Shown piece by piece: positions 1,126 to 63,248 of a stretch of DNA of 64,000 nt. Location: the NCBI GenBank assembly GCA_965204725.1, contig OZ242005.1:1088001-1152000 (forward strand), read 5' to 3'. The position numbers were made by a program, and so were the translations under genes. This stretch comes from Candidatus Latescibacterota bacterium (lineage in GTDB: Bacteria > Latescibacterota > UBA2968 > UBA8231). The stretch's first letter is position 1, and the number at the start of each line of letters is the position of its first letter. Below the pieces are notes generated by a model, which did no database searches, was not told where the DNA came from, and saw nothing but the letters and a program-made list of their open reading frames with translations.

Positions 1126-1130
1126 GGGGC

Positions 1131-1883: not shown

Positions 1884-1893
1884 AAGGTCTAGT

Positions 1894-4446: not shown

Positions 4447-4449
4447 CGC

Positions 4450-10113: not shown

Positions 10114-10126
10114 ACTGATTTCGGCG

Positions 10127-10161
10127 TTGCTTTGTAGTATATTCGGATGTAGATTCCGAAT
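10127..10161 (+). promoter_or_regulatory. sigma70 promoter with overlapping palindrome; probably a leaderless mRNA
   Basis: TTGCTT-N17-TAGATT ending 6 nt before ATG 10162; attcgga-N7-tccgaat inverted repeat over the -10; no RBS. Confidence 0.5.
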
Positions 10162-16411: not shown

Positions 16412-16644
16412 AAATCCATCTCCCACTCATCTCCAAAATCAGTATGAACGATGTCGCCGTGGATAGTCATCTGGCCACGCAGTTTGCCTAGCACTCTGTT
16501 CGAGTGGCTTTCTTCGCGGCAAGGGTTGACCGTGGCTATGGGCCGTTTGTTCAAGGTCACGAGGAGCGGTTCCCCCGTCCGTTGCACCTTCTTCAATTCG
16601 TCGATGCACTTCGCCTTGAATTCGGAAATACTTATTTCCTTCAT
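16408..16644 (-). CDS. Phd/YefM family antitoxin
   Basis: ISISEFKAKC...GEPLLVT...PIA; directly upstream of vapC. Confidence 0.88.
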   Translation of the reverse strand: MKEISISEFKAKCIDELKKVQRTGEPLLVTLNKRPIATVNPCREESHSNRVLGKLRGQMTIHGDIVHTDFGDEWEMDL

Positions 16645-16754
16645 CGCGATCCTCCAAGTTCTAGATGGTTAAGATAGGGGTTGGGCGAGATGTATCGCAA
16701 AGGAGACAAAAAGACAAACAGGTGCGGTGTGGTGGCGGGTGTGCGGACGATAAG

Positions 16755-17567: not shown

Positions 17568-17721
17568 TGCGAGTGTCCCTGTTTTAGATGGCTATGAAAT
17601 GGCTTGCAAAAATACGGACGGGTCGCGGATACGGCAAAGGATACAGCGGTGGGTTGGAAGGGATACAGCACTGAGCCGCAAATAAGGCGCGAGGGGATAT
17701 GGCAATCCTACATCATTACAG

Positions 17722-17817
17722 GACTGGATTCCCGCCCCGTGTCGGGGCACGGGGTGACGTTCTTTCGTGGGAATGACGCCTCATAAGCAGAAAAGACCGG
17801 GCCGATCAACATTCCAT
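17722..17817. repeat. Composite REP-like element, copy 1
   Basis: First 60 bp match 52002-52061 with one mismatch; a further 36 bp align without gaps but are diverged; nested inverted repeats. Confidence 0.85.
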
Positions 17818-17844
17818 ACTTTCGAGTCATTTAGGACAGCTATA

Positions 17845-17860
17845 TGGCACGGTCCTTGCA
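17845..17860 (+). promoter_or_regulatory. sigma54 -24/-12 promoter
   Basis: TGGCACGGTCCTTGCA matches TGGCACG-N4-TTGC(A/T), 26 nt before ATG 17887 (RBS AGGAGGA). Confidence 0.7.
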
Positions 17861-26274: not shown

Positions 26275-26288
26275 GGCTTCTTGGCCTT

Positions 26289-30586: not shown

Positions 30587-30925
30587 ATGTTCGACACCCG
30601 CATCCTCAACGAAGCCGTGAGAACGCGCCGCCAGCGGCTGATGGCCGAGCAAGCCGAGTTGTTCGCCTGTGTCCGCGGCACCCTGTTGGCGTTGCGGCAG
30701 CCGCTCGGAATCGAGGCCGCGTACATCGTCGGCTCGCTGCGGTCGCCCAATTCTTGGCGGGAAGCGTCCGATATCGACGTGGTCGTGGGGGGCTGCTCGC
30801 CCGTTGTGCTCGAAATAATGAAAGCTCTAGAGGACGCCACCGGCAGAATGGTAGATGTAATCGACCTCGACCGGCATCCCGCCCCTCAATCCTTTGTCCA
30901 ATCTGGAGTCAAGGTGTATGGATAA
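30587..30925 (+). CDS. MNT nucleotidyltransferase antitoxin
   Basis: GS...SDIDV...VDVIDL motif; upstream of a HEPN gene. Confidence 0.85.
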   Translation: MFDTRILNEAVRTRRQRLMAEQAELFACVRGTLLALRQPLGIEAAYIVGSLRSPNSWREASDIDVVVGGCSPVVLEIMKALEDATGRMVDVIDLDRHPAPQSFVQSGVKVYG

Positions 30926-31382
30926 AGGAGCCTTCTCCATCCTCGAAGCGGAATTGCGGGCGCGTTCCCGGGATATCGACCGCATCGGCGATCTCATTGA
31001 GGAACGCCTGAGCACGTTTGCCCATAGTGCCGAAGGGATAGACAGCATGGGATACCAACTCCACAACCTCTACGGCGCGTTTGAGCAGTTGTTCGAGGAA
31101 GTAGCGCGCTTTTTTGAAAACCAAATCGACGCAGCAAGGTATCACGCGGATATGATCAGGCGAATGCAGCTAGAAATCCAAGGCATCCGCCCGGCCCTCC
31201 TGTCTGCCGAGACGGCTGCCGACCTCGATGAGTTGCGACGCTTTCGCCATCTGTTTCGCCACGCATATTCCGCGAATTTGGATCCCGACAAAGTGGCGGA
31301 TTTAGCGGTCCAAGCCGTGCGCGCCCAGCGCGCCTTTGCGCGGGACTTCGAGCGATTTCTAACGCGCTTGCGGCCCGAGTAA
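30918..31382 (+). CDS. HepT-like HEPN ribonuclease toxin
   Basis: LHNLYGAFE, IRPALLS, RRFRHLFRHAY (Rx4-6H) motifs. Confidence 0.85.
   Translation: MDKGAFSILEAELRARSRDIDRIGDLIEERLSTFAHSAEGIDSMGYQLHNLYGAFEQLFEEVARFFENQIDAARYHADMIRRMQLEIQGIRPALLSAETAADLDELRRFRHLFRHAYSANLDPDKVADLAVQAVRAQRAFARDFERFLTRLRPE
31353..31381 (+). repeat. 29-bp direct repeat, left copy (3' end of the HEPN gene)
   Basis: cgatttctaacgcgcttgcggcccgagta; one mismatch to 35771-35799. Confidence 0.9.
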
Positions 31383-38510: not shown

Positions 38511-39194
38511 CTAAGGGGCCGCCTGTTCCTTCCCTGCGGCGGCATCCACGTACTCCTTCACCAAAAGAAGGTCTTCCATGGAGCCGCCCAACAGCAGCTC
38601 CAACGGCTCTCGTTCATCTAGCAAGGGGTGCCGTTCGCGCAGCCATTCGTTTTCAACTTCCAAATCGCGAAAGAGCGAGGACAGCGTCGCTCTGATATGA
38701 AAAAGATGGGCAATTCGATCTCGAATGTCTCGGCCGTGCAGGTCAGCAGCTCCTGCCAAAATCGCTCGCACGAGATTGTTGTCCGTCTGATCGAATCCCA
38801 GCAGGGGGACCGCATCGTCTCTGCTCAAATGCCAGTTCTCAAGCAATTTCAAGACGAACTGAATTGGTCCGCTGACCCGTTTCGGCGCAAAGACACTTAG
38901 TTTCCAACTCACAACGTCGGAACCGACATCTGACGAGTGAACTGCGATAAGTCCCAACGTTGACTTATATGCAGACGAACCGCTAGCGAAGGAAGGAAAG
39001 GCAGGTCTCGGCTTCCACTGATAAAAGTGGCTCGCATGTAAACCAGCCCCGACTTTGGACGGTCCATCATAGCCGGAGTTTCGCATTAAGAGGGAGTCAT
39101 TAGCTCCTTCTCCAAGAGCCGGTCCTAATAGTTCTGTTGCAGTCGTCATGTTAGTTCCACCTGAATCCGCGACAGTATCCCGCCTATCAGACAA
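38511..39194 (-). CDS. Xre/MbcA/ParS-type antitoxin (C-terminal toxin-binding domain), orphan
   Basis: C-terminal LSSLF...EWLRERHPLLDEREPLELLLGG; start uncertain; no RES toxin adjacent. Confidence 0.65.
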   Translation of the reverse strand: MSDRRDTVADSGGTNMTTATELLGPALGEGANDSLLMRNSGYDGPSKVGAGLHASHFYQWKPRPAFPSFASGSSAYKSTLGLIAVHSSDVGSDVVSWKLSVFAPKRVSGPIQFVLKLLENWHLSRDDAVPLLGFDQTDNNLVRAILAGAADLHGRDIRDRIAHLFHIRATLSSLFRDLEVENEWLRERHPLLDEREPLELLLGGSMEDLLLVKEYVDAAAGKEQAAP

Positions 39195-48935: not shown

Positions 48936-49943
48936 TTAGGCGCACAGGGGATGCGCCATCTGGGCGCGGCGGAAGGGGATGTCGATTTGGTCGCCCTGAT
49001 TGATGGCGGCCATTTTGGCCCGCGCCTCCAGCCACAGCCGGTGCCACTCGGCCGGATCGCGCAATTCGCTGGCTGGGTCGCGGCGGCTGCGGGCGACAAA
49101 CCCGGGGAAGGCGATGCGCCCGGTGGGCTGGTCGGTGGGATTGTAGCGCAGGTCAAAGCTCCAACGAACCTCGTCGCTGAGGTTGGAATACGAGCCGTGG
49201 ACGGTCTGCTTGTGCATGCAGATGACGTCGCCGCGCTCCACCGGCAGGGGGATGGCCCGGTCGGCCGCGAAGAGCTTTTCCGGGACTTGGGCGGCCCCGG
49301 CAAACTGGGGCGCGTTGTCCATGTAGTTGGGGCAGTGCGGCAAGAGGCCGTTTTTGTGCGAGCCGGGCGCGACCATCAGCGGCCCCTTCTCAACGGGGGT
49401 GTCTTGCAGCGGGAACCACACCGTTAGCATCTGGGTGTCGTCGGCTTCTTCGGTTACGACGCCGTGGTCTTGGTGCCATTGGGTGGCCCCGAGGACGGCG
49501 TTGCCGAACTGGTTTTTGGGCAGGTAGCGCTCGGGCGGCTTGATCCGCACGTGCTGGACCGGGTTGGAGTAGATTTCCGGGCCGATTAGCGACTCGACGA
49601 CGTCGAGCAGGTTGGGGTCGGTGAAGGCGCGGAAGACGGCTGGCCCGGCCCAGAAGGGGGTGTCGGCCTGGACGTTCTGAAAGGGCAGCGAGAAGTCGAA
49701 GTACTGGCTGTGGACGCGGCCGGTTTCCACGCAGATTTGGATGTAGCGGTCGCCGAAGCCGAGCTCGTGGTAGCGCGAGGCAATCTCGCCTTGATCGTAG
49801 AGCTCGTCGGCCAAGTGGTCGAGGACGGTGGCATATTCGTCAATGACCGGGTCGAGGGTGTTGACCGGATCGAGGACGCCTTTGACGACGAGGTAGCCTT
49901 CGCTGGCAAAGTGGTCGAGTTGGGCGGGGGTGAGGGCGGGCAT
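48936..49943 (-). CDS. PhyH family dioxygenase
   Basis: WHQD, PGSH, TVHGS, RWSFDLRY motifs; RBS GGAGG. Confidence 0.9.
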   Translation of the reverse strand: MPALTPAQLDHFASEGYLVVKGVLDPVNTLDPVIDEYATVLDHLADELYDQGEIASRYHELGFGDRYIQICVETGRVHSQYFDFSLPFQNVQADTPFWAGPAVFRAFTDPNLLDVVESLIGPEIYSNPVQHVRIKPPERYLPKNQFGNAVLGATQWHQDHGVVTEEADDTQMLTVWFPLQDTPVEKGPLMVAPGSHKNGLLPHCPNYMDNAPQFAGAAQVPEKLFAADRAIPLPVERGDVICMHKQTVHGSYSNLSDEVRWSFDLRYNPTDQPTGRIAFPGFVARSRRDPASELRDPAEWHRLWLEARAKMAAINQGDQIDIPFRRAQMAHPLCA

Positions 49944-49998
49944 GGGCGTAGCCTCCATTGGGTTCGGGTCAGTGGCTGGCGGTCTCTCTACAATACAG

Positions 49999-50023
49999 TA
50001 GGTTGCTGCGGTCTGGCAAGGGG
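49999..50023 (-). repeat. phyH upstream (promoter-like) segment, duplicated at 53360-53384
   Basis: taggttgctgcggtctggcaagggg vs taggttattgcggtctggcaagggg (23/25); contains a TTGCCA -35-like hexamer on the minus strand. Confidence 0.8.
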
Positions 50024-50062
50024 CATCATAGCCGTTGCTTTGCGGATGTTTCTCCGATTTCC

Positions 50063-51982
50063 TCAATCGGCCTTTTGTTTTGCCTTTTGCAGTTGGTTAT
50101 AGCGCTCCAGAAATTCGTCGTGTGCTCGTTTTACCATGTCGAGTAGGTCTGTGTACCTTCTGACGTAGATTTGCGAGTTTGCTAAAATGTCTTTTTTTCC
50201 TCTCGCTTGATCAGTATTAACCAAATCTCCGCAAAGGAGATACCCGGTGACTGTCTCATATTGATAATCACTATCCGTCGTCCGGTTAATGTAAGCTCGC
50301 ATAAAGATAACGTACTCTTCAATTTGGTTGAGTTCCTTCACAGAAGCGTTTGACTGTGGGCGTTTGATTTCTACTACGACCAAGTTCGCGCCTTCTCGTA
50401 CACAGAGGAAATCAATGCGTCTGTCTCTTTCCGGGGCGTCGCTGTCTTCTGGGAATTTGTCGCGCAGTAGTTGACTGTATGTTACCTCGTCATCTACCAA
50501 CGACCAACGCGGGTCAATCACCCAAGGGAATTCTTTTAGGAAGTTGTGGAGCGTCGGCACTTCCAACGCATTGTCTTCAATCAGTTTTTGGAGTTTTTCA
50601 ATCGTCGTTATGCGCCCTTGAGTAACTCGCGCCATTTCTTTGGCTTCGACGATTTCCCACTCGCGGAATAGGTTGAGGAGCTTTTCGGTGTCCTCGAACT
50701 CCGTTTCAGTTAGGTCTTCGGCGATTTCCCAAAAGGCATCGAACTCGAGAAAATCGAGGGATGTTTGGATGACGGGTTCGATCTCCTCGACATCGGCGGT
50801 TGGGTTCTTGTCGATCACTTGACGCACCAAGCGGTCGGCGAGCTTCAGGGCGCGGTTATTGCCCGTTTCCTCGGCTTGCTCACGGAACTTAACGTAGAGT
50901 GCATTTTCCTCTAGTTGCTGTTCGTTATCGTCGCGGCGTTTTTTGGCCCACTTACGGGCGATTTTTTTGACCTCTTTTTGGCCCCACTCCTTGAGAGCCG
51001 TATTGGGTTCCGTGTCCCATACTAGCGAGTTTCGCGTCGTCCCGATTGTATCTTCCCCTTCATCGACAAACTCGACGTGGAGTTCGCCAATAAGGTAAGA
51101 GAGGGCGAATTGTTGACCGACAACGGCTTCAAAAACATAAGGCTCTTGTACTAGCTTGCCTCTCGCCATGAGAACGATTCCTCGGTCTATGCCGTCAATG
51201 TCCGGCGTCGTGCGGTTTAATGCACCGATCCAGCCCGATACGGTCCAGCCCGTTTGGGGCTGGATTTCTACGTCGTCGTACTCCCATAAGTACGGCTTGC
51301 CGTCCATGTCTTTGTCGAGTAGGGATTTGAGGTCGCGGTCTTCAGGCGAGATTGGGTCGCCGTTAATGACGACCTCGAAGCCTTGTTGTGCGCCAATGAC
51401 GGAGAATCGTCTGGCGAGTCCTCTACGGATTCTCTGAATCGAAATGCGGCGGCTTTTGAATTTTGTGATATGTCTGAGTATGATTTTCGTTCCTTTGGAG
51501 ACGGTTCCGGTAGGCGGCAGCGGCGGAAACTCGATGGTGCGTTCATCCGCTTTTTCCAACAGTTCGTCGTAGTTCATGCGGAAGTGGCTGCCTTCGCTGT
51601 CTTTCACGCTTTCTATGTCGATCTCTTTGGCGATGCCAAAGGCCGAGAATTTGCCAATGCCTTTTCGGCCCATGATCTTGCGGTTGTGCGGCGAAGGTGT
51701 CAGGTCGGATTGCTCGTTTTCGCGGCGGTCTCGGCCGACGATGAGGTACTTGTTCCGCACGTCCTCGTCGGACATGCCCATTCCGTCGTCGCTGATGATG
51801 ATTTCCGAGTGTTCGTCAATCGGTTTTTCGGGTATCTCAATCTCAACTTTGGTTGCGTTTGCGTCCCAGCCGTTGGCGACGAGTTCGCCGATGACGGGTG
51901 GCAGGGTCGAGTACATCTGCAAGCCGAGGTGTTTGATGGTGCAAACGTCGAACTCCATTCGGTAGGGGTCTCTAGAAGCCAT
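50063..51982 (-). CDS. GHKL (MORC/MutL-like) ATPase fused to a PD-(D/E)XK nuclease; putative restriction component
   Basis: ELVANGWDA, DDGMGM, GRKGIGK, KGT motifs; C-terminal RIDFLC...VEIKRP...QIEEY. Confidence 0.85.
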   Translation of the reverse strand: MASRDPYRMEFDVCTIKHLGLQMYSTLPPVIGELVANGWDANATKVEIEIPEKPIDEHSEIIISDDGMGMSDEDVRNKYLIVGRDRRENEQSDLTPSPHNRKIMGRKGIGKFSAFGIAKEIDIESVKDSEGSHFRMNYDELLEKADERTIEFPPLPPTGTVSKGTKIILRHITKFKSRRISIQRIRRGLARRFSVIGAQQGFEVVINGDPISPEDRDLKSLLDKDMDGKPYLWEYDDVEIQPQTGWTVSGWIGALNRTTPDIDGIDRGIVLMARGKLVQEPYVFEAVVGQQFALSYLIGELHVEFVDEGEDTIGTTRNSLVWDTEPNTALKEWGQKEVKKIARKWAKKRRDDNEQQLEENALYVKFREQAEETGNNRALKLADRLVRQVIDKNPTADVEEIEPVIQTSLDFLEFDAFWEIAEDLTETEFEDTEKLLNLFREWEIVEAKEMARVTQGRITTIEKLQKLIEDNALEVPTLHNFLKEFPWVIDPRWSLVDDEVTYSQLLRDKFPEDSDAPERDRRIDFLCVREGANLVVVEIKRPQSNASVKELNQIEEYVIFMRAYINRTTDSDYQYETVTGYLLCGDLVNTDQARGKKDILANSQIYVRRYTDLLDMVKRAHDEFLERYNQLQKAKQKAD

Positions 51983-52001
51983 AACATACCTCCTTATTCA
52001 A

Positions 52002-52097
52002 GACTGGATTCCCGCCCCGTGTCGGGGCACGGGGTGACGTTCTTTCGCGGGAATGACGCCTTAGTATGAAAAAAAACGGTTCCGATGAACATTCCAT
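52002..52097. repeat. Composite REP-like element, copy 2
   Basis: Matches 17722-17817; fills most of the gap between the C5 MTase and GHKL-nuclease genes. Confidence 0.85.
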
Positions 52098-52098
52098 G

Positions 52099-53118
52099 TC
52101 AACATGAATCGGCGATTGATTGGCCCAATTGTTCGGCGAGTTTTACCGGGACGGCGTTGCCGATTTGGCCCGATAAAAATAGAAAAGATGGGCCGAAAAA
52201 TTCGTAATCGTCGCCAAAGGTTTGGAGCGCGGCGGCCTCGCGCAATGAGATGCCTCTGTCTTGCTCGGGGTGGATGAAGCGGCCACAATAGACGTCTGTG
52301 CAGCGGCACGTTAGGGTTGGGCTCGGCGCGTCCCATGTCATGCGGCCAAATACGTCTTTGTGGGCGTTCGGCTGCTTTTGGTGGCACTTGAGTAGGATGG
52401 ACGTGTCCGCTACTTCCCGTCGGCTGCCGCCGTTTTTGGGGACGGCCGCGACAATGCGTTTGTGGTGTGGTTGCAGTTTTCTGGCGACGTGATTCGGGTA
52501 TGCCGCTGATGCTTCGCCATCGGCAATAGTCGGGTACTGGCCAATGGCGCGGCGCACGGTTGCATGGGCGGCGGTCTGTGGGCTGGGGAGCGCGGCGGCC
52601 CCGTGTCGGGAGGCCACGACGATGAATCGCTTGCGCGTCTGCGGAACGCCGAAATGTTTTGCGTCGATTAAGTCCGCTGCTTCTGAAAAGCCGCATCTTC
52701 TCAGGACCGACAGAAACTCTCGGTAGATTTCTTTGCCGTAAGCGTTGTTTAGTCCGGGAACGTTTTCTGCTAGGATGAAGTCGGGGGGGCGTTCCGCGAC
52801 GATTTTGGCAAAGTCCAGTAGGAGGGCTTTTCGTTTGTCTTGACCTTTTAGCTTATTGAGGGTGGAGAAGGGTTGGCACGGCGTACAAGCCGCGTAGAGC
52901 GTCAAGTCGTCGTCTTCAATGCCGAGCTCTTGGAGGAGTTTGTGGATTTGAATGTCGTTGATGTCGCTGTTGATGAAGCGGCATGGTTTGTTATTGTGTA
53001 TGTAGGTCTCCCGCAAACGTAGATCATTATCGACGCCGGCCAGCACCGAGATGCCGACATTCAACAGTCCTCTGGTTAGACCGCCCGCTCCGCAGAAGAA
53101 GTCAATGGCTTTAATCAT
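52099..53118 (-). CDS. dcm: DNA (cytosine-5) methyltransferase
   Basis: DFFCGAGG, PCQPFS, ENVPG, GVPQTRKR, REAAALQTF, IGNAVP motifs. Confidence 0.95.
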   Translation of the reverse strand: MIKAIDFFCGAGGLTRGLLNVGISVLAGVDNDLRLRETYIHNNKPCRFINSDINDIQIHKLLQELGIEDDDLTLYAACTPCQPFSTLNKLKGQDKRKALLLDFAKIVAERPPDFILAENVPGLNNAYGKEIYREFLSVLRRCGFSEAADLIDAKHFGVPQTRKRFIVVASRHGAAALPSPQTAAHATVRRAIGQYPTIADGEASAAYPNHVARKLQPHHKRIVAAVPKNGGSRREVADTSILLKCHQKQPNAHKDVFGRMTWDAPSPTLTCRCTDVYCGRFIHPEQDRGISLREAAALQTFGDDYEFFGPSFLFLSGQIGNAVPVKLAEQLGQSIADSC

Positions 53119-53359
53119 GGGGGGCCTCGTGGTGCTCTAAGGCGGGCAATCCCTTCACGATCTTCACTGTCTCCAAACTCACCGTAATCATCTTGCCGAT
53201 CAACTCGACGATGTATTGCGGCTCGTCCCCTCGATTCGGATCATTGGTGATACCGCTTCGTTTGTCTGTCTTGACGCGGTACTGGTCGATTATCCATTCC
53301 AACGCCGACCGATTCCCGAGTTGATAGTCATAAGTTTCCGGTGGAATCCCGTCGAGTGT
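53111..53359 (-). pseudogene. Duplicated 3' end of the Type ISP/IIG RM gene
   Basis: 53136-53359 aligns without gaps to 57601-57824 (21 mismatches in 224 bp by manual count); its stop overlaps the dcm start. Confidence 0.9.
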
Positions 53360-53483
53360 TAGGTTATTGCGGTCTGGCAAGGGGGTTATGCGCCGATTGA
53401 GCGGCAAATCTCGGCCTGAGTTAGTGATCATAATCTTTCCGCCTCAAGAGGAACTTAGGTTCTTCGGCGATTGGCCTAAGCTA

Positions 53484-54980
53484 TCACCGTGAGTAGTCCG
53501 ATGGATTTTTCATGTTACCATTGATCACAAATACAAATGCCTTAGATGGAAAATCTTTGGCTGTATCGACTCCCCCATGAGTCTCGACATCAGTGAGAAT
53601 AATATCGTTCCGAATGTCCCCAGGAGGTTTATCTTTAGTCGTCAGGTCGAGCACGAGAAGGATGCTGACTTGTCGGGCTTCGACGCCTGCGTATTGAGTA
53701 GCTTGGGCTGTGTACTTTTTCGAGATGTGCTCTCGGTCACCGTTTTCCTTTTCGACTTTTAGTTCGACAATCACTCCGAGATACCTAATATCTGTGACGC
53801 CTCCTGCTTGGCTTGAGTGTTCTTGTACATCCTGTCCGAGCACATTCCGAAGATCTCGAAGCACTGTTGCTTGGAACTCGGACTCCGATACATCACTCTG
53901 TCCCTTGTAGATTGCTTCTTGAGCATAAGTAGCTAGCAGACGAGTGAGAGCCTGAAGCATCTTTAACAAGTCAGGAAGTTCATCTCGGACCTTGGGACAG
54001 TCTGAAAGCAGACTTGTGGCAAGTTCGTTAATGTGTTGATCCAGCCTCCGGTTGCCTGTCATCAGGGGATGCCTGTCTTCATTAACAACTTTGAGACGCA
54101 GCTCATTGTGCCCAATTACGGGGAGTTCAATGAACTTCCCGTCGGACGTTTCAAATGCACCACGAACTGTAAACACAAGATCATCTAGACCGATACTTTG
54201 CTCTGAATTGAACTTAATTTGTCCTGCTAATTTCCCCCGATATTCGCCGTTTTCAACACTACCCGGTGCGTCCAGCGCAAACTTGGAAACCGAGAACTCG
54301 GTTGAGGGACACGTCGTAAGCAAGTCAAGGTGAAGGCGAACCGCATCATTTGGCCATGTGAGGCCACGCACCCGAAATTCCAAAGGGTACAAAATATTGG
54401 GCTTTAAGAGTTGCGGACTTGCAAGCGGAGCATGATCCAGAAATACAATCACCCTCAACATCGGGCTTAGCGTAGCTACGGGTTCTTCTACCTCATCTTG
54501 ATACGGAAGATCCAATTTGCTTCTATGCCAGTACAATATAGGTAGTGGGACTGCCAATAGGAATGTACGCAGTTCGTCGGAATCGTATTGCCCTGTTTGG
54601 AGCAACGGTTGACGAGTTGAATCCGCGATACCCGGCAGTGTGAGAGTGTCCGCCGAAATCCAACGTCGTAGCTCACCAACTAAGACATCGCATCTTGTAC
54701 GTTCCGCAACCAAGTCACCTTCACTCCCTTGGGCAATTGCTACACAAGTAACTTGACTGACCAAGACACGTAGGCCGGCAACTATGACCTTCCACTCTAT
54801 AGGTACATGTTCATCTGGTGTCTGTTTAATAAGTTTGTCAATCTGATCGACGAAGGTATCAACTTTCTGACGCCATTCTACTTTGTCATAAGTTGTCGAG
54901 TTCAAAATCGTGCGTATATCATGAATGAGTGCTACTGAATTAGAAGCATGGTTAATATCCAACTTGGATTCCCGCATCAA
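53484..54980 (-). CDS. Uncharacterised protein with C-terminal PD-(D/E)XK-like nuclease
   Basis: ESEFQ...GGVTDIRY..VIVELK...QATQY...LLVLD pattern; low GC; start overlaps the upstream stop. Confidence 0.7.
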   Translation of the reverse strand: MMRESKLDINHASNSVALIHDIRTILNSTTYDKVEWRQKVDTFVDQIDKLIKQTPDEHVPIEWKVIVAGLRVLVSQVTCVAIAQGSEGDLVAERTRCDVLVGELRRWISADTLTLPGIADSTRQPLLQTGQYDSDELRTFLLAVPLPILYWHRSKLDLPYQDEVEEPVATLSPMLRVIVFLDHAPLASPQLLKPNILYPLEFRVRGLTWPNDAVRLHLDLLTTCPSTEFSVSKFALDAPGSVENGEYRGKLAGQIKFNSEQSIGLDDLVFTVRGAFETSDGKFIELPVIGHNELRLKVVNEDRHPLMTGNRRLDQHINELATSLLSDCPKVRDELPDLLKMLQALTRLLATYAQEAIYKGQSDVSESEFQATVLRDLRNVLGQDVQEHSSQAGGVTDIRYLGVIVELKVEKENGDREHISKKYTAQATQYAGVEARQVSILLVLDLTTKDKPPGDIRNDIILTDVETHGGVDTAKDFPSKAFVFVINGNMKNPSDYSR

Positions 54981-57541
54981 GTTTTATCCTTTCCCTTAGC
55001 AAAATATGCTTCAGCCGCTACTATGTCACCTGTTTGTAGTGATGCGTTTCCTGCGGCGATCATAGCAAGTTGCTTTAATTTTGTGCGAAATGCTTTGTTC
55101 CTTGGTTCTTCAGGGAGAGCGTTGAATGCGGTCTCCAATACTTTTTGCTCATACCGAAATGAACGAAAGTGCGTGAAAAGGCTTGCGAAATGGCATGATT
55201 CCCAAGGGTCGAGTTTGGCCAATTTTTGGGCGGAGACTAAGAGGTCACCTGCTACGTGCTGATACGTCGCTTCCGGTAGTTTATGTAACCACTCGAAGAA
55301 TCGAAGACGTTTTGAATGTCCGTAGTAATTATAGCGATCTCTGCTATGGTGTGCTAGATGCACACCAATGTCCTTGGCAACAAATTTAGCAATTTCTTCG
55401 CTTGGCTCGCAGAACCAAATCAGACTTTCCGCGATCTTGCTATCTACAAGGTCTTCTTTAGTCGGAAAGACAGACTCAACTAGGCGCAACGCTACTGGTT
55501 TGAAGATCGCATCTTGCTGGCCAATTTTCAGGATTGCATCGCAGATACTTTCGAGTTGATATTTATCATTATGGTACACACGAAGGTGTGCTTCAAGACA
55601 ATTAAGAACTTCAAGTAGTTGACTTTTATTAAACCACCTTGAACACCGAGCCACGGCTTGTCGTGCAGCCTGATGAACAATTACTTTCGGGTCTTGTAGG
55701 TGAACGACAATGGTGTCCACAAGATTTTGGGGTGGCATAGTAGTCGAAAAAGAGAACATCTCGACTGTTGCGTTTATTGCTTTAGCCCGCACCCAAGCTG
55801 AATCGTAATCCATCAACGTACGCCAAATCAAAGGCAGTACGCGTGTTTGGAGAGTATAGTTCTTGCCAAGCTCACCGAGCAACGATACACAGCACACCTT
55901 GAATTCGTCCTCAAGATGTACTGGCGGTTGGTTCAAACAGTTGAAGACAGAATCGAATGTCTCTGAAGGATTGGCCTTGCAGAGTTCGTTCAAGCATCCC
56001 TGCAATCGTCCTTTGAATAAATCCCATTCTTGGATGCGCCCTAATTCTTCTAGCTGCTCAAGTTGAGTATCCTGTGCCTGAGTCTGGTTAGGTAACAGAA
56101 TCGTGGGTGGTGGAGAGGGCGGACGTTCCTCGCCACTAATGATGGCAAAATAACCGAGGAGAGAGTCAAAATGATTCAGCATCTCTGCCGAGGCATTCAT
56201 ACAGGCAATTTTCAATGCCTCAAGTGCATAGGATCGAATATCGATCTCGAATCTGTCATCTTTAGTCCATGAAAGTAGTCTTTTAATTGCAATCTTTTCC
56301 TGTTCATCTACTTCAGTTCGGTTTCTATGCTCATGCCGTTCATCCCAGCTTATGGTCTGGTCGAAAAATTGGCCTAGGTACACGAGAACAATATCTTCTT
56401 GCACGGCTGGACGAACGCGGATCATTGACCCGGCAAGAAACTGGTCAACTCTCTCTGAGGAACATCGAAACGCCGATTGCAAAATTTGGATAATCTGCCT
56501 TGATGGCCTCACTTCATGTGACCGTGTATTTTCGTAAAATTCAAGTGATTGAACTAAGTCACCAAGTAGATTCTCGACTATCTGTGGTCGTTCGCACTGA
56601 ATAAGTTTGATTGCTCCACACAATTGGAAGCGTACGGCCACATTCTCGTTTTGTAGTTCACGGCGAATAATGTCTTGCACACTCTCTGGATCAGTGTCAA
56701 AATTTCGTACGATGACTGTGGTACTGTGACAGGAGTGATTCTGTGAAAATATCAAGTGTTTGATACATACTTCACTAAGTGGATACTCAACGGCGTCATC
56801 GAGCGCGTTAATCACCTCAGCAGACAGTTCTGTATATTGTCCTTTCTCAATGTTGTCAAAAGCTACTTGGCTAAAACGAGAGCCTAACTCAGAGCGTCTG
56901 CTGGCGAGTTCTGTGCAGACTGGAAGCATTAGATCAGAAAAATCGTTGGAACCAGCAAGCAGCAAGATCAGATCAATCGCAGCTTCAGGGAAAAGGTCCG
57001 CCCCCAAGCGTGCTGATTGTTGCAAGCGTTCGGCTGCTTCCTTGCGTTCTGCTTCATTTTCTGAGAAAATCGTCTCAAGATACTCAAGTATGCGATAAGA
57101 CTCAGATTCTGATTCCGAACTAATTTCTTTGGATTTTTCACGTAGGTCAGAGCGAAGTTGGGATATTCGCTCCGCTTCTGTTTCGGCTGCTTGAGTACGT
57201 TCTTGGACTTCTATCCGGTGTTTATCGATAATCTCTTGTCCCCACGAGGTATCTCCATTAGGGGTATGATGCGGACAAGTAGCACAATGTTTTACAAGAA
57301 AATTGGAGAAAATACAACGAAGATTCATGGACTCGCGCATGCCCTCTACTTTGGGACAGCCTATGCTATGGCTTGCGATGGGAAGCCCTGTCATCTGTGC
57401 GTAAAGCCCTTCAGTAGTTCGCTCGATCTCTACATATTTGCACCAACTCCGCATTTGGCTTATGCACTCAGCATTGTCCTCACCGAGCTTTATAGCCTGA
57501 TTAAGCTCATTAGCTTGAGATTCGTCAAATCGTCGCATCAT
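54977..57541 (-). CDS. Uncharacterised HEAT/ARM-repeat protein with N-terminal Cys/His motif
   Basis: C...CxxCxHH motif, coiled coil, HEAT-like units (VRFQLCGAI, IRSYALEAL, VRAKAINA, LQDPKVIVHQAA), TPR-like end. Confidence 0.7.
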   Translation of the reverse strand: MMRRFDESQANELNQAIKLGEDNAECISQMRSWCKYVEIERTTEGLYAQMTGLPIASHSIGCPKVEGMRESMNLRCIFSNFLVKHCATCPHHTPNGDTSWGQEIIDKHRIEVQERTQAAETEAERISQLRSDLREKSKEISSESESESYRILEYLETIFSENEAERKEAAERLQQSARLGADLFPEAAIDLILLLAGSNDFSDLMLPVCTELASRRSELGSRFSQVAFDNIEKGQYTELSAEVINALDDAVEYPLSEVCIKHLIFSQNHSCHSTTVIVRNFDTDPESVQDIIRRELQNENVAVRFQLCGAIKLIQCERPQIVENLLGDLVQSLEFYENTRSHEVRPSRQIIQILQSAFRCSSERVDQFLAGSMIRVRPAVQEDIVLVYLGQFFDQTISWDERHEHRNRTEVDEQEKIAIKRLLSWTKDDRFEIDIRSYALEALKIACMNASAEMLNHFDSLLGYFAIISGEERPPSPPPTILLPNQTQAQDTQLEQLEELGRIQEWDLFKGRLQGCLNELCKANPSETFDSVFNCLNQPPVHLEDEFKVCCVSLLGELGKNYTLQTRVLPLIWRTLMDYDSAWVRAKAINATVEMFSFSTTMPPQNLVDTIVVHLQDPKVIVHQAARQAVARCSRWFNKSQLLEVLNCLEAHLRVYHNDKYQLESICDAILKIGQQDAIFKPVALRLVESVFPTKEDLVDSKIAESLIWFCEPSEEIAKFVAKDIGVHLAHHSRDRYNYYGHSKRLRFFEWLHKLPEATYQHVAGDLLVSAQKLAKLDPWESCHFASLFTHFRSFRYEQKVLETAFNALPEEPRNKAFRTKLKQLAMIAAGNASLQTGDIVAAEAYFAKGKDKT

Positions 57542-57572
57542 TTCCTCGATTCTCCCTGTCAGATGTCGCTAT

Positions 57573-60500
57573 CTATATATGTTTTTTGTTTTTCTGCACA
57601 TCCAACTCCGGCAACCCCTTCACGATCTCCACCGTCTCCAAGCTCACCGTAATCACCTTGCCGATTAGTTTGACGATGTATTGCGGCTCGTCCCCTCGAT
57701 TCGGATCATTGATGATGCCGCTTCGTTTGTCTGTCTTGACGCGATACTGGTCAATTACCCATTCCAACGCCGAGCGATTCCCGAGTTGATAATCATAAGT
57801 TTCCGGTGGAATCTCGTCGAGTGTCAAGAAGTCGTTGTACTTGATATGCGTCTTGTCTTTGGATAGGCGCATTTTCTCTACGCGCCAGTCGAGCGGCGCG
57901 TCCGGGTTTTCGATGAAGTTGAGCCGATGTTCGGGTTGGGCTTCATAGCCGACGTGGAGTTCTGCCAAGCGTTGCCCCGCTTTGGCAAAGGCCCAGAAGT
58001 CCGGGGCGTAAGGGATGTGCGGCAAGTCTCGCTTGAGGTTGGCTTGGTATCGCGTCCGGTATTCCGGGTGGTGGAGCAAGCCATAGACGTAGTGGAAGAT
58101 GGCGCATTTGGTGATGGTGTCGTCGCTGTAATGCGAGCGGAATTGGGTCAAGGCCCAGTCGGTGATGTTCTCGCGGCGGTTGCTGCCGTCCTCGTCGTAG
58201 ATGTAGAAGGAGAAGCATTGGGTTTTTTCAAGTATGTCAAGACACGGAATCATAGAAGCCATCAGGGTTTGAAAAGGTTTGTTACTTCCGATGCCACTGA
58301 CACAAATCACTCGATTTTCTTTTTCTGTCTCAGGTATGGGGAAGATGGAGGGGAAAGCGTACACCCTCTCGTTCATCAATCGGTCAAAGTAGAGGTTCGG
58401 TTTCGTGAATGGACGATAGGATGATACCCTTATCTTTTTTTCTGAAAAATTAGCGGTTCTCCCTCTTGCTAAGTTTCGTTTAAGGGCCTCGCTCCACTTG
58501 ATTTTTTGATCATCAGAAGTCACAAAGTCATCGATATTTGCATCTTGATCCGTCCGTTGTTTCCATCTGGATCTCTGCTCGTTGTAGGTATCAATCATCC
58601 GCTTCATGTTACCAGTGAGCACATTTCGATCAAAGTTGTACGCCCAATCATTGCGGCTCGTGTTGACACCAAGGCTATAAATCTTAAATATCACATCCGC
58701 TCCCTCGCCCTTCTTCGCCTTTGCTTCCCGACTTCCCATCGGCACAAAAATTTCAAATCCTGTGTCGAGTCCTTCCGTGAGCCATGTATGTTGTCTGTCT
58801 GGCGTTATTGGTTTCCATTCGACGTTGCGGTAGTGTTCCTTTGAAGCAAGATAGCGATACTTTTCTTCTTTGCGCCAGAACTCGTCAACACGAGCGTAAG
58901 AAATTTTGGTAGGGGAATTTGCACTGTCGTTCTTTTTGATAAAGATGTTAATGCTCACACCGACTTGGATTCCAAAGACGTTGTGCGTCGTGCCGGAGAG
59001 CTTTGGATTTTTGCGAACATTCCCGCTCAAATCGAGAATGTAAATCGCGTCAAAATCATCTGCCAAATGTTTTCGCATTCCGTCAAATGCCACGCCTTCG
59101 AGAAATCCATTGTTCGTTACCAGCGCGATAATGCCTTCATTTCCGATCCGGTCTGATGCCCACCGAATCGCTTTTACATAATGATCGGAGAGTTTACTTT
59201 TATTTGACGCCTTAGAGGCTCGCGAATACGTCTCCGCAACCCGCTTATCCATCGTCTCGTACTTCCGATTTTTGTTATTGTCGTTCTCGTTGACTTGGCC
59301 GACGTTGTAAGGCGGATTGCCGACAATCACAAACATTTCCGTTTCCTTTTGCCGTTCAACCCGCGCCGTGTTCTCCTCAGTAAACAACGCCAACTGATGC
59401 TCCTCGGCCAGTTCAAACGTATCGACCAAGCACAGCCCTTCAAACGGCTGATAACGCCCCGTCGCCTCGTAGAACTCGTGCTCAATGTTCATGGACGCGA
59501 TGTAGTAAGGCAACAGCATCACCTCGTTGCAGTGAAGCTCGGACGAATACTTGGCCTCCAGCGCAGTGCGGCGAATCTCGCGCATCATGCGGACGATGAA
59601 ATTACCCGTGCCGACAAACGGGTCGATGATGTGAACGCCCGCGTCCGAGAGCGAGCGACCAAACTCAGTCTGCAAAATCTGCTCAACACTTCTCGCCATA
59701 AAATCGACAATCGGCTGCGGCGTATAGACAATGCCGTGCGTATCGGCGACTTCCACTGAAAACCCCTGAAAAAACTGCTCATAAACCGTGTTGAGGAAAT
59801 GCTGCTTTTGAGAAAAGTCATGGATGGTTTCCGCTGTTCGCTCAATCGCGACATAGAAGCGGTCGAGGCTCTCGAGAAAATCGCGGCGGCTAAACGACTG
59901 AGACGTAAGCGCGTCAATGACCCGCTCGATCTCGTGGGCAATCACGTTGCGCCGCGTAAAATCGGGATTGCTAAAGACGGTGCGGAAAATCCGCTCGGTC
60001 AACAGATGCTGAACGAGCATCTCCTCAACAGCGGCTTGAGAAAGATTGGGATTGATGGACTGCCGACACTTATCGTAGAAATCCGCAAAGGCCGTGGTGA
60101 AGCGGCGGTTGGTCTGCCGCTCCCGTTGAATCAACGCCGCCAACCCTCGCCCAATGTCGGGAACCTTGTCCTTGAACTGAGCGACCGCCTCGTCCCATTC
60201 GGCAATCGCCGGCGGCCGGTGCGAAAAAAAGGCGTCGAGCGTCTGGACGAGTTGCGCTGGGTCGGTCAGATCAGCGTCGAGAACAAGGGCGTCGTTCTGC
60301 CACAAGATCGCTCGTTGGGGCGTTTGGAACAGGATGTTGTCGCTGGGATACCCAGCCGCAAACTTGCGCTGCACTTCGGCGGGCAAGTCGTCGTCTATGT
60401 CCTTAGCCTCCCAATAGCCATGCGGCAAATTAAACTCGTCGATCAGGGCACCATCGACGCGAATGCGCTTGTTCTGAGGGAGCGCGATAGAATGCTCCGG

Positions 60501-60662
60501 CACAAGCGTCCACCGAAACTGCTTCCCACACGTTTCAAGCAACGATTGAAACGCCGAGCGCACCGCAGTCTCATGCTCGACGCCGATCTGCTTAAAGGCA
60601 TCGAGCGATTCGTAGTACGCCGTAACGGGCTTGTGCGTGGGCTTGAGATTGAGAGTCGGCAT
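57573..60662 (-). CDS. Single-chain restriction-modification enzyme (Type ISP/IIG-like, no helicase domain seen)
   Basis: RVDG...YWEAKD nuclease, GIVYTP, DPFVGTGNF, GNPPY, YRPF, YVYGLLHHPEYR motifs. Confidence 0.9.
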   Translation of the reverse strand: MPTLNLKPTHKPVTAYYESLDAFKQIGVEHETAVRSAFQSLLETCGKQFRWTLVPEHSIALPQNKRIRVDGALIDEFNLPHGYWEAKDIDDDLPAEVQRKFAAGYPSDNILFQTPQRAILWQNDALVLDADLTDPAQLVQTLDAFFSHRPPAIAEWDEAVAQFKDKVPDIGRGLAALIQRERQTNRRFTTAFADFYDKCRQSINPNLSQAAVEEMLVQHLLTERIFRTVFSNPDFTRRNVIAHEIERVIDALTSQSFSRRDFLESLDRFYVAIERTAETIHDFSQKQHFLNTVYEQFFQGFSVEVADTHGIVYTPQPIVDFMARSVEQILQTEFGRSLSDAGVHIIDPFVGTGNFIVRMMREIRRTALEAKYSSELHCNEVMLLPYYIASMNIEHEFYEATGRYQPFEGLCLVDTFELAEEHQLALFTEENTARVERQKETEMFVIVGNPPYNVGQVNENDNNKNRKYETMDKRVAETYSRASKASNKSKLSDHYVKAIRWASDRIGNEGIIALVTNNGFLEGVAFDGMRKHLADDFDAIYILDLSGNVRKNPKLSGTTHNVFGIQVGVSINIFIKKNDSANSPTKISYARVDEFWRKEEKYRYLASKEHYRNVEWKPITPDRQHTWLTEGLDTGFEIFVPMGSREAKAKKGEGADVIFKIYSLGVNTSRNDWAYNFDRNVLTGNMKRMIDTYNEQRSRWKQRTDQDANIDDFVTSDDQKIKWSEALKRNLARGRTANFSEKKIRVSSYRPFTKPNLYFDRLMNERVYAFPSIFPIPETEKENRVICVSGIGSNKPFQTLMASMIPCLDILEKTQCFSFYIYDEDGSNRRENITDWALTQFRSHYSDDTITKCAIFHYVYGLLHHPEYRTRYQANLKRDLPHIPYAPDFWAFAKAGQRLAELHVGYEAQPEHRLNFIENPDAPLDWRVEKMRLSKDKTHIKYNDFLTLDEIPPETYDYQLGNRSALEWVIDQYRVKTDKRSGIINDPNRGDEPQYIVKLIGKVITVSLETVEIVKGLPELDVQKNKKHI

Positions 60663-60668
60663 TGTATT

Positions 60669-60828
60669 ATGGCTCGGTTGTCGTCGCTACGTCCGGGATC
60701 GAGGGCGTCCCGACGTGCGATCCTTATCTATGGTCGATTGTCCTAGCCGCCCCGATGGCTCGGTTGTCGCCGTTGCGTCCGGGATCGAGGGCGTCCCGCC
60801 CTCGCCGAGGGCAAGATGCCCTCGATCC
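60669..60828. repeat. 44-bp near-tandem direct repeat plus REP palindrome
   Basis: 60669-60712 vs 60755-60798 (3 mismatches); ggatcgagggc...gccctcgatcc palindrome at 60782-60828. Confidence 0.8.
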
Positions 60829-60930
60829 GTGGAGGCTGGTGTCGCGTAATAAGACTTTCATTATTATAAACACAGAACAACGTCAAGGGCCATCCAACTC
60901 GTCCGCCGCCCATCCTCGGAGGAAGCCGCC

Positions 60931-63248
60931 GTGCCTCCCGCACTCCAAATTCCGCTGTATCCCCGCCTGCTCAAAATCCTGCAAAGCGTCGGCGCGGTCC
61001 TCTCGCTCGCCAGTGCGCTCTCAGCCGAGTCGCTCCGCTTTGACGCGGCCAATGAGTGGCAGACTTGGCCCTTGCCGCTGGGGATTGTCGCGCTCGACGA
61101 CGCCGGAGTCATCCGCCCGGTCGAAATCCGCAAAAACCCCGACCCGGTGCGCGATGCCGCAGCCTTTGGCGGCGGAATTCACGCAGCAGGCTCCAACTCG
61201 CTGGCCGCAGCGCGAGCCATAGACGGAGATCAGCAAACCGGCTGGAGCCCCAACTTGGCCGACGACTTAGACGACTGGTGGATCGAGATCGACTTGGGAC
61301 GAGCCGTGGCCGCGCGGCGAGTAGTGCTGACCTTTTTGGAAACTGCGCCGCCGTGTGCGCTGTTCGACGTGTTGCTTTCCACCGGGGAGCCAGCCATCGA
61401 CGTAGTTGGCAACCCGATTGAAGGCAGCCTCGTGTACCGCGTGCAGGAGCGCTTCAAGGAAAACCAACGGCCGCAGGTCGCGCTAGAGCTAGACCCGGTG
61501 CGCGACCCGTTCGTGCAATTTATCCGCGTCGAAATGCTCGACTGTGGGGCCGACGCCGCACTGGCCGAGGTGGCGGTCGAAGCCATCGGCGACAACCTCG
61601 CCTTGGGGCTGGCGGACAAGGGCGGGGGCTTGGAACTCATCGTGGATATTGACGGCTTTGGCGACGCCGCGTCGTTTGCCAATGTGCTGCCGCTGGCCGA
61701 CGGCCGGTTTTCCCTGTGGACAGAAAACCGCCGCATCAACCGCTCGGTGGATGTAATCTCGCGCATGACGTTGGACTTGGGTGCGGTCTTTTGGGTGGAT
61801 TTAGTCCGCATCGTCGGGACTTTTTGTCGCGCCCGGGGCAATTCCGCTTCAACTTCGACCGCTACGAGGTGCTGACCGCAGATGGGTCGCTGGCACCAGA
61901 CGGCACGCGGATATGGCACCGGCAATTCGCCGGCAAGGCCACCATGTCCAATCGCCAGCTCGGGATCGCCAACCACCACTTCGCGCCGCTTGCGACGCGC
62001 TACGTGCGGGTCGAATGGGTGTTTTGGGACGCGGCCTGCGCGGCCGCTTGCGTGGGGTGCGGCATTGTGCCGCCCTGCCAGTTTTGGGGCGGTACGCGCG
62101 AGTTGCAGGTCTTTGGCGAGGGCTATCCGCAGCGGGTGGTGTTGCCCTCGCCCCTGATCGACTTAGGCGGCGACAAGCAGGTACACGCGATCCGCTGGCA
62201 GGCCGACGCGCCCGCCCAAACGCGGGTGGAAGTCCGCAGCCGCACCGGCAACGACCTGCAAATGGACATCACCTATCACGACAAAAACGGCCGGGTCGTT
62301 TCCGAGCGAAAGTACAACAAGCTCATTCCGTCCTTTAAGGGCCGGATTGACACCGCGCTTTCCCCAGGGGCCGATTGGAGTCCGTGGAGCAAGCTGTATT
62401 TGCAGCCGGGCGAGCCGTTCGCGTCGCCCTCGCCCCGCCGCTACGCCGAGTTGGAGGTCGCCTTGGTGTCCGAGCGGCCGGATGCGGGGGCGGCCTTGGA
62501 TTGGCTAGTGCTTGAGTTCGGCGACCCGGTGGCGCGCACCGTGGTGGGGGAGATTTTTCCGGTCGAGGTGCAGCCGGGGGAGCGGACCGAGTTTGCCTAT
62601 TACATTCGTCCGCAGCAGGTGGCCGGCCGCGGCTTTGACCACTTGGCGGTGGAGACCTCCGCGCCGATTGAGTTTGTCTCGGTGTTGGTTGAGGGCGAGG
62701 TGGTGGAAGCAACGGCGGAGCCAACGGAAGGGGGGCTGGCGGTCGCCTTAGCCGCGCCGGTTAAGAGCCGCCAGTTAGTGGAGCTGCGCTTTGCGGGAAC
62801 CGTGTTTGTCGATGCCACGCGCTTTGACGCCTTTATTGGCCAAGACCAAGTGCGGCAGCGAGTGGAGGCGGGCGATGCGTCCTCAGCAGTCGCCAGCAGT
62901 ACCAATGCCGTGCGCTTGCCCGTGGGAGCGCGGCTGTTGGCCAACGTGTCGATGGGGCCGCTGTGGTTGACTCCCAACGGCGACGGGGTCAACGACGCCC
63001 TACGAGTGGAATTCGACTTGGTCAATATGTTGGCCGCCCGGTCTATCGGCCTGCGGATTTTCGACCTTGCGGGGCGACTGGTGTGGGTGCGGGCAGAGGA
63101 GGGCCGGGCCGGTGGTCGGGCTTGGGTTTGGGACGGCCGGGGGCGTTGGGGGGCGCCGGTGGGGCCGGGGTTGTACATCGTAGAGTTGCGCGTTGAGGGG
63201 GACGAGCAAAGCTACAGTCGGCAGCGCGTGGTCGCCGTGGCGTACTAG
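60931..63248 (+). CDS. Secreted discoidin/FlgD-like protein (paralog of 44619-46583); frameshift at ~61816
   Basis: ORFs 60931-61875 and 61716-63248 join with +1 G (IVG|DFLSRPG); IDLG, WSPWS, TPNGDGVND motifs. Confidence 0.72.

Follow-up and report, generated by a model that had tools for sequence, protein, structure and literature searches.

Polymorphic toxin loci are the closest described parallel to the arrangement reported here. In Rhs, CdiA and type VI secretion system (T6SS) loci, as set out in PMC5361080, a variable 3' tip and its cargo come behind a conserved upstream gene. A new module enters beside the conserved gene, and the old module is moved downstream with a fragment of the conserved 3' region, giving arrays in a single orientation that lack an integrase. 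One homologous anchor plus one illegitimate join has been proposed to build these arrays, the old module being kept because its loss is harmful. The same source proposes homology-facilitated illegitimate recombination for T6SS effector-immunity arrays and for displacement of Rhs C-termini, and cites Jackson 2009, Poole 2011 and Koskiniemi 2014 for orphan modules of Rhs, CdiA and T6SS loci. Here we describe a locus that follows the same plan in a 64,000-bp stretch of a Candidatus Latescibacterota bacterium (assembly GCA_965204725.1, contig OZ242005.1, positions 1,088,001 to 1,152,000), which we call the window. Two cassettes of defence-type genes, cargo A and cargo B, are stacked there behind a type IIG restriction-modification (RM) gene and upstream of phyH. 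Unlike the toxin loci as that source presents them, this locus has the type IIG RM gene as its anchor, its cargos are whole defence systems where those loci have toxin tips plus immunity genes, the variable tail of RM has ~10 codons and no toxin-like domain, and the scar includes a duplicated piece of the right flank.

Other described systems also resemble the locus. RM insertions of the Kobayashi type (PMC2853133) are units of a few kilobases holding restriction (R) and modification (M) genes but no mobility gene, with direct repeats of the target at their ends and an empty site in a relative, as is seen here. Homology-facilitated illegitimate recombination in transformable bacteria, as cited in PMC5361080, likewise combines one homologous anchor with one non-homologous join and uses no recombinase; the present case differs in that the window join has no microhomology (a comparable join in a relative, L015, has 3 bp) and in being known from sequence alone. 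Core defence hotspots (PMC10250203) and P2/P4 hotspots (PMC13586616) hold alternative defence systems between conserved flanks and undergo transposase-free swaps. In contrast to these hotspots, one flank of our locus is itself mobile, a defence gene with copies at many sites in the chromosome, and the recombination scar is preserved, whereas the P2/P4 source leaves the mechanism open; that 2026 study, on hotspots of phages and satellites, names three options as still untested: homologous recombination, homology provided by shared domains, and illegitimate recombination. As in integron arrays, new cassettes are proximal and older ones are pushed distally, but the locus has no integrase and no attC-like sites, and its cassette borders do not fall at a fixed nucleotide. 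We found no account of such stacking for RM or defence genes in the open-access literature searched; the joining process is known from bacterial toxin loci, and for defence islands it is not described in that literature. What is new here is the RM gene as anchor, whole defence systems as cargo, and a scar made of an orphan gene tail and a flank duplication.

The region is best explained as a defence island whose anchor, upstream of phyH, is a type IIG RM gene that is mobile and multi-copy, with the cassettes behind RM exchanged and sometimes stacked. All of its features lie on the minus strand. The RM gene (57573..60662, 1029 aa) is followed by cargo A, which consists of genes A1 (54977..57541) and A2 (53484..54980), and, after a spacer of ~30 bp, by the junction between the cargos. 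Beyond the junction lie the two genes of cargo B: dcm (52099..53118), for a C5 cytosine DNA methylase, and a restriction endonuclease (REase) gene (50063..51982). A 39-bp spacer after the REase stop (50024-50062) leads to phyH-upstream sequence and to the first host gene on the right, which encodes a phyH-family dioxygenase (48936..49958) and is syntenic in two relatives, L001 and L016. An earlier note on this DNA had given this same minus-strand order of RM, cargo A, junction, cargo B and phyH. It had also suggested joining without an integrase, and this agrees with the gene content: among the 50 open reading frames (ORFs) of at least 90 aa in the window there is no integrase, transposase or recombinase, and no tRNA gene is adjacent, the sole one being 6 kb distant. 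Site-specific integration was rejected on the same grounds. The relatives discussed below come from one scan of a genome collection holding one genome per species (384 matching stretches, 363 encoding RM relatives, best 80 kept).

The junction is made of sequence from both ends of the island. An orphan 3' fragment of an RM allele, X' (53136..53359), matches the RM 3' end, X (57601..57824), at 203 of 224 positions (90.6%), ungapped and with a longest exact run of 40 nt, in agreement with the 224-bp, ~91% identical copy described in the earlier note. A copy of the phyH-upstream flank abuts X' at 53359/53360, with zero shared bases at the join. The final 25 bp of this copy, which we call Y, recur next to phyH (49999-50023 against 53360-53384, 23 of 25 identical; the phyH-proximal Y contains a -35-like TTGCCA). 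The earlier note had taken these 25 bp for the entire flank copy. They are the duplicated part, at 53360-53384, but comparison with L001 shows that the copy is really 94 bp long (53453-53360, 87% identical). At up to three mismatches the Y 25-mer has just two sites in the 64 kb, and none of 100 shuffles matched. We rejected Y as a dispersed repeat or regulatory motif, since besides its two window copies it occurs only at the borders of L001. The flank copy ends abruptly and the sequence resumes within the reading frame of RM, which calls for at least one illegitimate join.

A chimeric ORF of 106 aa (53111..53431) runs across the join. It takes an ATG and 23 codons from the flank copy, continues in frame into X' and then into a divergent, B-type RM tail (25 nt between X' and dcm), and its stop overlaps the dcm start (ATGATTAA). 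The exact ORF occurs on four contigs of a public protein collection, the longest of 5.38 Mb; no diverged copies were found in that collection, where the next match is 73% identical. The 40-nt identical block shared by X and X' would make loop-out of cargo A mechanically plausible. Part of the 94-bp element (window 53385-53453 and L001:18318-18386) bears a weak likeness to the stretch of RM coding sequence immediately upstream of X, the frame being kept after a gap of 27 nt. An origin of the 94-bp flank as an old RM relic was rejected on profile scores of ~1 bit, yet the real sequences ranked first and third of 804 targets, and part of the element could be a very old orphan RM relic.

Relatives of the locus supply the separate pieces. 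L001 is the orthologous locus: both host flanks are syntenic, and a single, different cargo, SIR2 plus NACHT, replaces everything between the RM tail and the 94-bp element, with one Y. Its phyH-upstream sequence is continuous (L001:18318-18411 corresponds to window 53453-53360 at 87%, and L001:18387-18470 to 50023-49940 at 89%). As this sequence is uninterrupted, L001 represents the empty site for cargo B, and only 25 bp are duplicated in the window. L016 has the order RM, SIR2/NACHT, a 124-bp repeat element, dcm, REase, phyH and M14, and a trace of the RM' tail (…EAPHD followed by a stop) stands in front of dcm, as in the window. Cargo B and the host genes are about equally diverged between L016 and the window (dcm 94.0%, REase 90.5%, phyH-M14 90.8%), and the RM' trace is common to both. 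Hence, cargo B with its RM' tail probably adjoined phyH before the window and L016 lineages split.

In L006, cargo B lies directly behind an intact RM gene, and the 8-bp overlap of RM with dcm is identical to that of X' with dcm in the window. The RM-dcm-REase unit (L006:8842-18545) is bordered on one side by the gene for a fabD-like acyltransferase and on the other by that for a fabG-like reductase, and a ketoacyl synthase gene lies downstream; the unit's position inside a fatty-acid synthesis cluster identifies it as an insertion. The orphan of the window thus resembles those of Rhs and contact-dependent inhibition loci in two respects: X', a B-type tail and cargo B lie downstream in the same orientation as RM, and the tip and cargo of the orphan are found on a full-length gene elsewhere, namely the L006 RM gene, whose B-type tail runs over dcm.

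A second stack recurs in L015, where RM, A1 and A2 are colinear with the window (84.8%) and are followed by a 720-bp spacer, dcm and REase. The A1-A2 pair is 90.2% identical between the two loci, against 79.8% for RM and 76.7% for dcm; cargo A therefore looks like a later arrival than the genes around it. The L015 spacer ends in an 81-bp sequence that is repeated after REase at 98.8% and is the 5' end of the next gene. This copy is joined to what remains of an RM tail at …CGTTTG/TGGAGGGG… (a slash marks a break here and below), with 3 bp of shared sequence. The L015 scar is independent of the one in the window and has the same topology. In L018 and L019, RM is followed by a TIR gene, an RM fragment of 85 nt and a decayed dcm.

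Together, the L001 allele, the L006 RM-B unit, the position of B beside phyH in L016 and the placement of X' in a phylogenetic tree (below) uphold the central claim of the earlier note, that two alternative occupants of one locus have been concatenated. Its expectation of single-cargo alleles held in part: L001 has a single cargo at the same locus and L006 has RM with B alone, but the exact alleles RM-A-phyH and RM-B-phyH were not found.

We traced the source of X' in a tree of 43 RM 3' ends, built by maximum likelihood. It groups X' with L016 and X (support 100/98), with L001 as sister to this clade, and apart from the L006/L015 lineage. This placement identifies X' as the tail of an RM allele, or a duplicate, from this very locus. 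We also polarised the 21 differences between X and X' against 25 ungapped homologues. Seven changes fall on the X branch, at codon positions in the ratio 0:1:6, and 14 on the X' branch (5:2:7), a pattern as expected if X belongs to a working gene and X' is an orphan under relaxed constraint.

How did the two cargos come to be stacked? The sequences show the layout of the region, the derivation of its pieces from alleles of the locus, the illegitimate character of the join and the return of such joins in relatives. From these comparisons we infer which allele was resident, how the new DNA was joined and why cargo B was kept. With about even confidence, we propose that a resident RM'-B allele was displaced by incoming RM-A-flank DNA through one homologous exchange and one illegitimate join. 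This is favoured because B shares both its phyH-level divergence and its RM' tail with L016, because A is far closer to that of L015 than the surrounding genes are, and because B is distal in all five stacked loci (window, L015, L016, L018 and L019), behind three kinds of proximal cassette (A, SIR2/NACHT and TIR) and decaying in two of them (L018 and L019). In the older allele, RM' would have stood directly before dcm and the HgiDII-like REase, beside phyH. The incoming DNA would have been a second allele of the same locus, carrying RM, cargo A and 94 bp of right flank. On its left side, homologous recombination would have taken place within the RM gene or upstream of it, and its right end would have been joined illegitimately, blunt and without microhomology, 253 bp before the end of RM'. 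The outcome would be a cargo B shifted distally with an orphan RM' tail, and 25 bp duplicated where the incoming flank overran the right border of B.

Loss of complete type II RM systems is known to be lethal to cells. Cargo B would have been kept since losing such a system is harmful, so that its retention was plausibly under selection, and since, after the join, an ORF remained whose end still falls on the start of dcm. The last point is suggestive only. At the three loci with an intact orphaned B, an ORF that begins with ATG enters the RM' tail and has its stop at the start of dcm (its length is 106 aa in the window, 47 aa in L015 and 27 aa in L016).

Several observations weigh against this proposal. 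The two exact single-cargo alleles are missing from the collection, as noted above. A flank duplication accompanies only two of nine tested orphan RM fragments (window and L015). X and X' are sisters in the tree (99/72), which is easier to reconcile with duplication in situ or a very close donor than with an old resident; combined with residence of B before the window-L016 split, it calls for a close donor, gene conversion or in-situ duplication. Illegitimate joins usually use a few bases of microhomology, and the window join has none. Finally, the join coincides with a border motif, and the proposal does not predict a preferred site. In L001, two copies of a 17-mer (15 of 17 identical) bracket the whole RM-plus-cargo island, one ~80 bp upstream of the RM start (L001:9903-9919) and one at the end of Y (L001:18395-18411). 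The 17-mer ends at CCTA/, the same nucleotide as the junction breakpoint in the window.

At up to two mismatches the 17-mer has four sites in 1.76 Mb, all of them borders (the two in L001, and window 49999-50015 and 53360-53376). The whole L001 island seems to have entered with a target duplication, and CCTA/ may be a re-used break or insertion site. Such a preferred break site would be a sequence-directed element, which none of the recombination models predicts. The left border of L016 keeps a related motif and that of the window only a diverged trace. When we sought an island-bracketing direct repeat in the window, L006, L015 and L016, none was convincing (L015 gave a 21-mer and L006 a 17-mer), leaving L001 as the only case.

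The earlier note had put forward a circle, besides homology-facilitated illegitimate recombination, and we regard the circle as unlikely. An [RM 3' end - cargo - flank] segment would be circularised by an illegitimate join and would enter the other allele by a single homologous crossover, either as [X-A-94 bp] entering the B allele through the 224-bp RM homology or as [X'-B-Y] entering the A allele through the 25-bp Y. The order of flank and RM fragment matches a circle junction exactly, the same topology is seen again in L015 with its 81-bp repeat, and the 40-nt identical block is long enough for a homologous crossover. Direct repeats around RM units are, moreover, a known class, reported to amplify them (PMC2853133). 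The product would be the same, but this route also includes the illegitimate join and adds a further step. A circle carrying B would also be likelier to cross over in X, which is nine-fold longer than Y, and B would then end up proximal; yet B is distal in all five stacks. The circle with single crossover is thus neither needed nor favoured.

We consider it quite improbable that [RM 3' end - cassette - flank] was duplicated in tandem by unequal sister-chromosome exchange and that one cassette was then replaced through the duplicated arms. X and X' are indeed mutual closest relatives, the flank/start join is a classical novel joint, and a genuine local tandem duplication exists in L066, involving a hicB-like gene and an RM fragment (174 bp, 90% identical). 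Against these points, two events are required, the Y copies differ at two of 25 positions and X and X' at ~9%. X' also has the B-type tail and the 8-bp dcm overlap that are found behind the intact RM gene of L006, so it looks like the native end of RM'-B and not like a copy of an A-type end.

An RM-driven insertion that duplicates a long stretch of its target is very improbable in our judgement. Here, a double-strand break at CCTA/CTGT upstream of phyH would have captured cargo B with a piece of its former RM neighbour, and 25 bp would have been duplicated during repair. The 3,361-bp repeat unit contains only dcm, REase and the RM' fragment, has direct-repeat flanks and corresponds to an empty site in L001; with R and M genes, a length below 20 kb and no other mobile element, it falls within the insert definition of PMC2853133. 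The bracketing of the L001 island by a 17-mer ending at the same CCTA/ also fits. However, the 25-bp repeat is shorter than the 30-bp cut-off given in that source (the 81-bp repeat of L015 passes it), and the Y copies differ at two positions, which means either an old event or copies that were not identical when made. In contrast to the inserts of that class, as presented there, the unit also carries the neighbouring locus's own RM 3' end, which points to allelic rather than foreign origin. Insertion leaves unexplained both the phyH-level divergence of B from L016 and its constant distal position. An assembly chimera of co-existing RM-A-phyH and RM'-B-phyH strains is scarcely credible, even though the relatives are all metagenome-assembled genomes (MAGs), as the two sides of the join share no sequence and so offer overlap or k-mer graphs no point for a mis-join, the exact junction ORF lies on four contigs including one of 5.38 Mb, and comparable stacks occur in the chromosome-scale records L015 and L016.

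The displacement proposed above gives the RM gene the role of anchor, and its family is consistent with mobility. The RM protein combines a methylase with a target-recognition domain in one chain (Pfam N6_Mtase, 2e-13; Type_ISP_C, 2.7e-106; ISP_coupler, 3.1e-19), and the PADLOC model REase_MTase_IIG (PDLC03621) matches it over positions 13-1018 of 1024 (E 1.3e-189). No Pfam nuclease domain was matched in the chain; its N-terminal ~160 aa are covered by the full-length PADLOC model. Type ISP identity was rejected, as the protein has 1029 aa and no Pfam helicase, and a 1646-position ISP-like PADLOC model matched only from position 743 on. Among the best 80 of the 363 loci, family members are found in MAGs labelled Latescibacterota, Poribacteria and Caldilineaceae, and in a few labelled Acidobacteriota. 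Several copies may occur on one chromosome, and seven of these 80 loci are on a single Caldilineaceae record. The window RM gene is 88.4% identical in nucleotides to that of L001, evenly along its length (85-93%), and is mosaic relative to other family members.

For 77 loci, sequence downstream of RM is available; it contains at least ten gene modules that recur, and those adjoining RM are mostly of defence type. They include SIR2 plus NACHT (PADLOC candidate PDC-M54A), a SMEK-NACHT fusion and a TIR protein, and further PDC-S11/DUF4268, PDC-S60/DUF4062, PIN and a HicB-like gene. The housekeeping genes beyond these modules differ between loci. The earlier note had treated the RM gene as host flank. 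This does not hold: the gene has a low G+C content and belongs to a multi-copy family that crosses phyla, and RM plus cassette occurs at unrelated sites, such as the fab cluster of L006. The variable RM tail (~10 codons) has no domain match and is probably without function. We considered whether the RM tail always travels with its cassette; this is true for A and B and fails for the SIR2/NACHT cassette in L020. IS605 OrfB/TnpB-like (Cas12f-like) genes lie within 8 kb downstream of RM in five loci (L030, L037, L049, L052 and L069), and are the sole transposon-type genes seen near the family.

Orphaned 3' fragments of RM, each oriented like the gene itself, are found in the window, L009 (two), L015, L016, L018, L019 and L066 (two). 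Those of L066 (L066:13392-13622 and L066:14568-14800) belong to the local duplication mentioned above. In L009 (13245-14034), two serial tail fragments surround a TIR gene. L054 (7426-10276) presents the converse of the 3' orphans: ahead of the full-length gene, the first ~90 codons of RM are present in three tandem copies, ~1.2 kb apart. In the protein collection, 1,789 proteins of 58-186 aa have a Type_ISP_C tail, many of them on contigs of hundreds of kilobases to several megabases, and RM tails of this class may be common as orphans far outside this family.

Cargo B is predicted to be a complete type II RM system, comprising a C5 methylase and a GHKL-ATPase-type REase. The domain matches are DNA_methylase (1.7e-53), TIGR00675 (2.7e-39) and HATPase_c_3 (3.3e-22). 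The REase scores 373.3 bits against the equivalog NF050001 over residues 7-633 of 639, under the cut-off of 550. It is thus by sequence clearly related to BbrUII/HgiDII but below the equivalog threshold, and its specificity may differ. An element of ~120 bp with a GC-rich hairpin lies in the dcm/REase gap of both the window (51996-52098) and L016 (19556-19673), in the gap between the proximal cassette and dcm of L016 (18402-18524), and at an unrelated place in the window (17697-17845). It looks like a small non-autonomous mobile element.

The description of cargo A as HEAT plus nuclease, made from the letters of the sequence, holds at the level of folds and motifs. A1 (854 aa) has 114 relatives, some with Pfam HEAT_2. 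Its predicted model is confident (predicted local distance difference test score, pLDDT, 88; predicted template-modelling score, pTM, 0.71) and consists of a Cys-rich N-terminal head followed by an alpha-solenoid of ~700 residues, and the nearest folds in the PDB are all HEAT proteins (SF3B1, Kap121p and CAND1). A2 (498 aa) has 217 relatives, all named "hypothetical", and residues D397, E406 and K408 are invariant. It is composed of a helical bundle, a beta-sandwich and a C-terminal domain with the order α-β-β-β-α-β, like that of PD-(D/E)XK nucleases. A2 has no Pfam or NCBIfam matches, a Foldseek comparison of the whole A2 model with the PDB gave template-modelling (TM) scores of at most 0.2, PDB sequence searches with A1 and A2 returned nothing useful, and Atlas look-alikes of the two are unnamed clusters plus weak HEAT and PDDEXK leads.

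In two MAGs, one of Gemmatimonadetes and one of Candidatus Electrothrix, A1 and A2 homologues have consecutive locus tags. We considered whether cargo A is a Lamassu system and rejected this: A1 matches LmuB at only E 4.6e-4, and its model is a HEAT-type solenoid, not an SMC-like ATPase. Residues 300-497 of A2 match the C-terminal third of one LmuA model (1.8e-20), the remainder being unmatched. Hence, A1-A2 is a gene pair conserved across phyla and named in no library, and a candidate for an uncharacterised defence system; its context would point to a role in defence.

The limits of the island are marked by base composition. G+C content falls from ~0.63 to 0.45-0.56 exactly at position 50000 and recovers only near 60500-61000, which places the RM gene within the island. 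The left border, from the last host-flank homology to the RM start, spans 60663..60930. It contains two 44-nt direct repeats (60669-60712 and 60755-60798; 86 bp apart, 93% identical) and, adjacent to them and just upstream of the RM start, a 23-nt inverted repeat (60782-60828). The L001 left border is ~90 bp shorter upstream of the RM start. Scans for promoters and terminators gave background levels (three promoter-like sites against 2.1 expected).

The rest of the window holds many genes of defence or toxin-antitoxin type (3397-5751, 9385-11337, 16010-17567, 24727-26424, 30587-31382 and 38511-39194): two N6/N4 methylases, DUF3800, AAA_14/DUF4143, PIN, GmrSD_C, AAA-ATPase_like plus PDDEXK_9, a nucleotidyltransferase with HepT, and an Xre/MbcA-type antitoxin. 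Positions 367-3327 encode a Pup ligase and proteasome subunits. Hexamer palindromes are strongly avoided throughout the window: ten of 64 are absent (for example GTGCAC, 0 against 11.3 expected; TCCGGA, 0 against 11.1), and GTCGAC occurs five times against 42.3 expected. This avoidance fits a heavy restriction load.

What is the significance of a defence island stacked in this way? How systems are gained and lost in defence islands without an integrase is an open question, and this locus makes the mechanism testable. It keeps the scar of the event at base resolution, and its relatives provide an empty site, an intact donor-type unit and an independent second scar. The orphan-module logic of polymorphic toxin loci is thereby extended to anti-phage immunity. 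It is also suggested that addictive RM systems can ratchet islands towards accumulation. Rather tentatively, and with more doubt than confidence, we propose a broader interpretation, in which a multi-copy type IIG RM gene serving as a portable recombination anchor, together with a sequence-directed break at CCTA/, forms an integrase-free system for accretion of immunity cassettes in symbiont-type genomes. The conserved RM 3' end would then be a common left arm for swapping whole defence systems, and the break at CCTA/, possibly cut by the RM enzyme itself, would choose the point of insertion. An addictive resident RM system would lead to stacking, and orphan RM tails would be its readable record.

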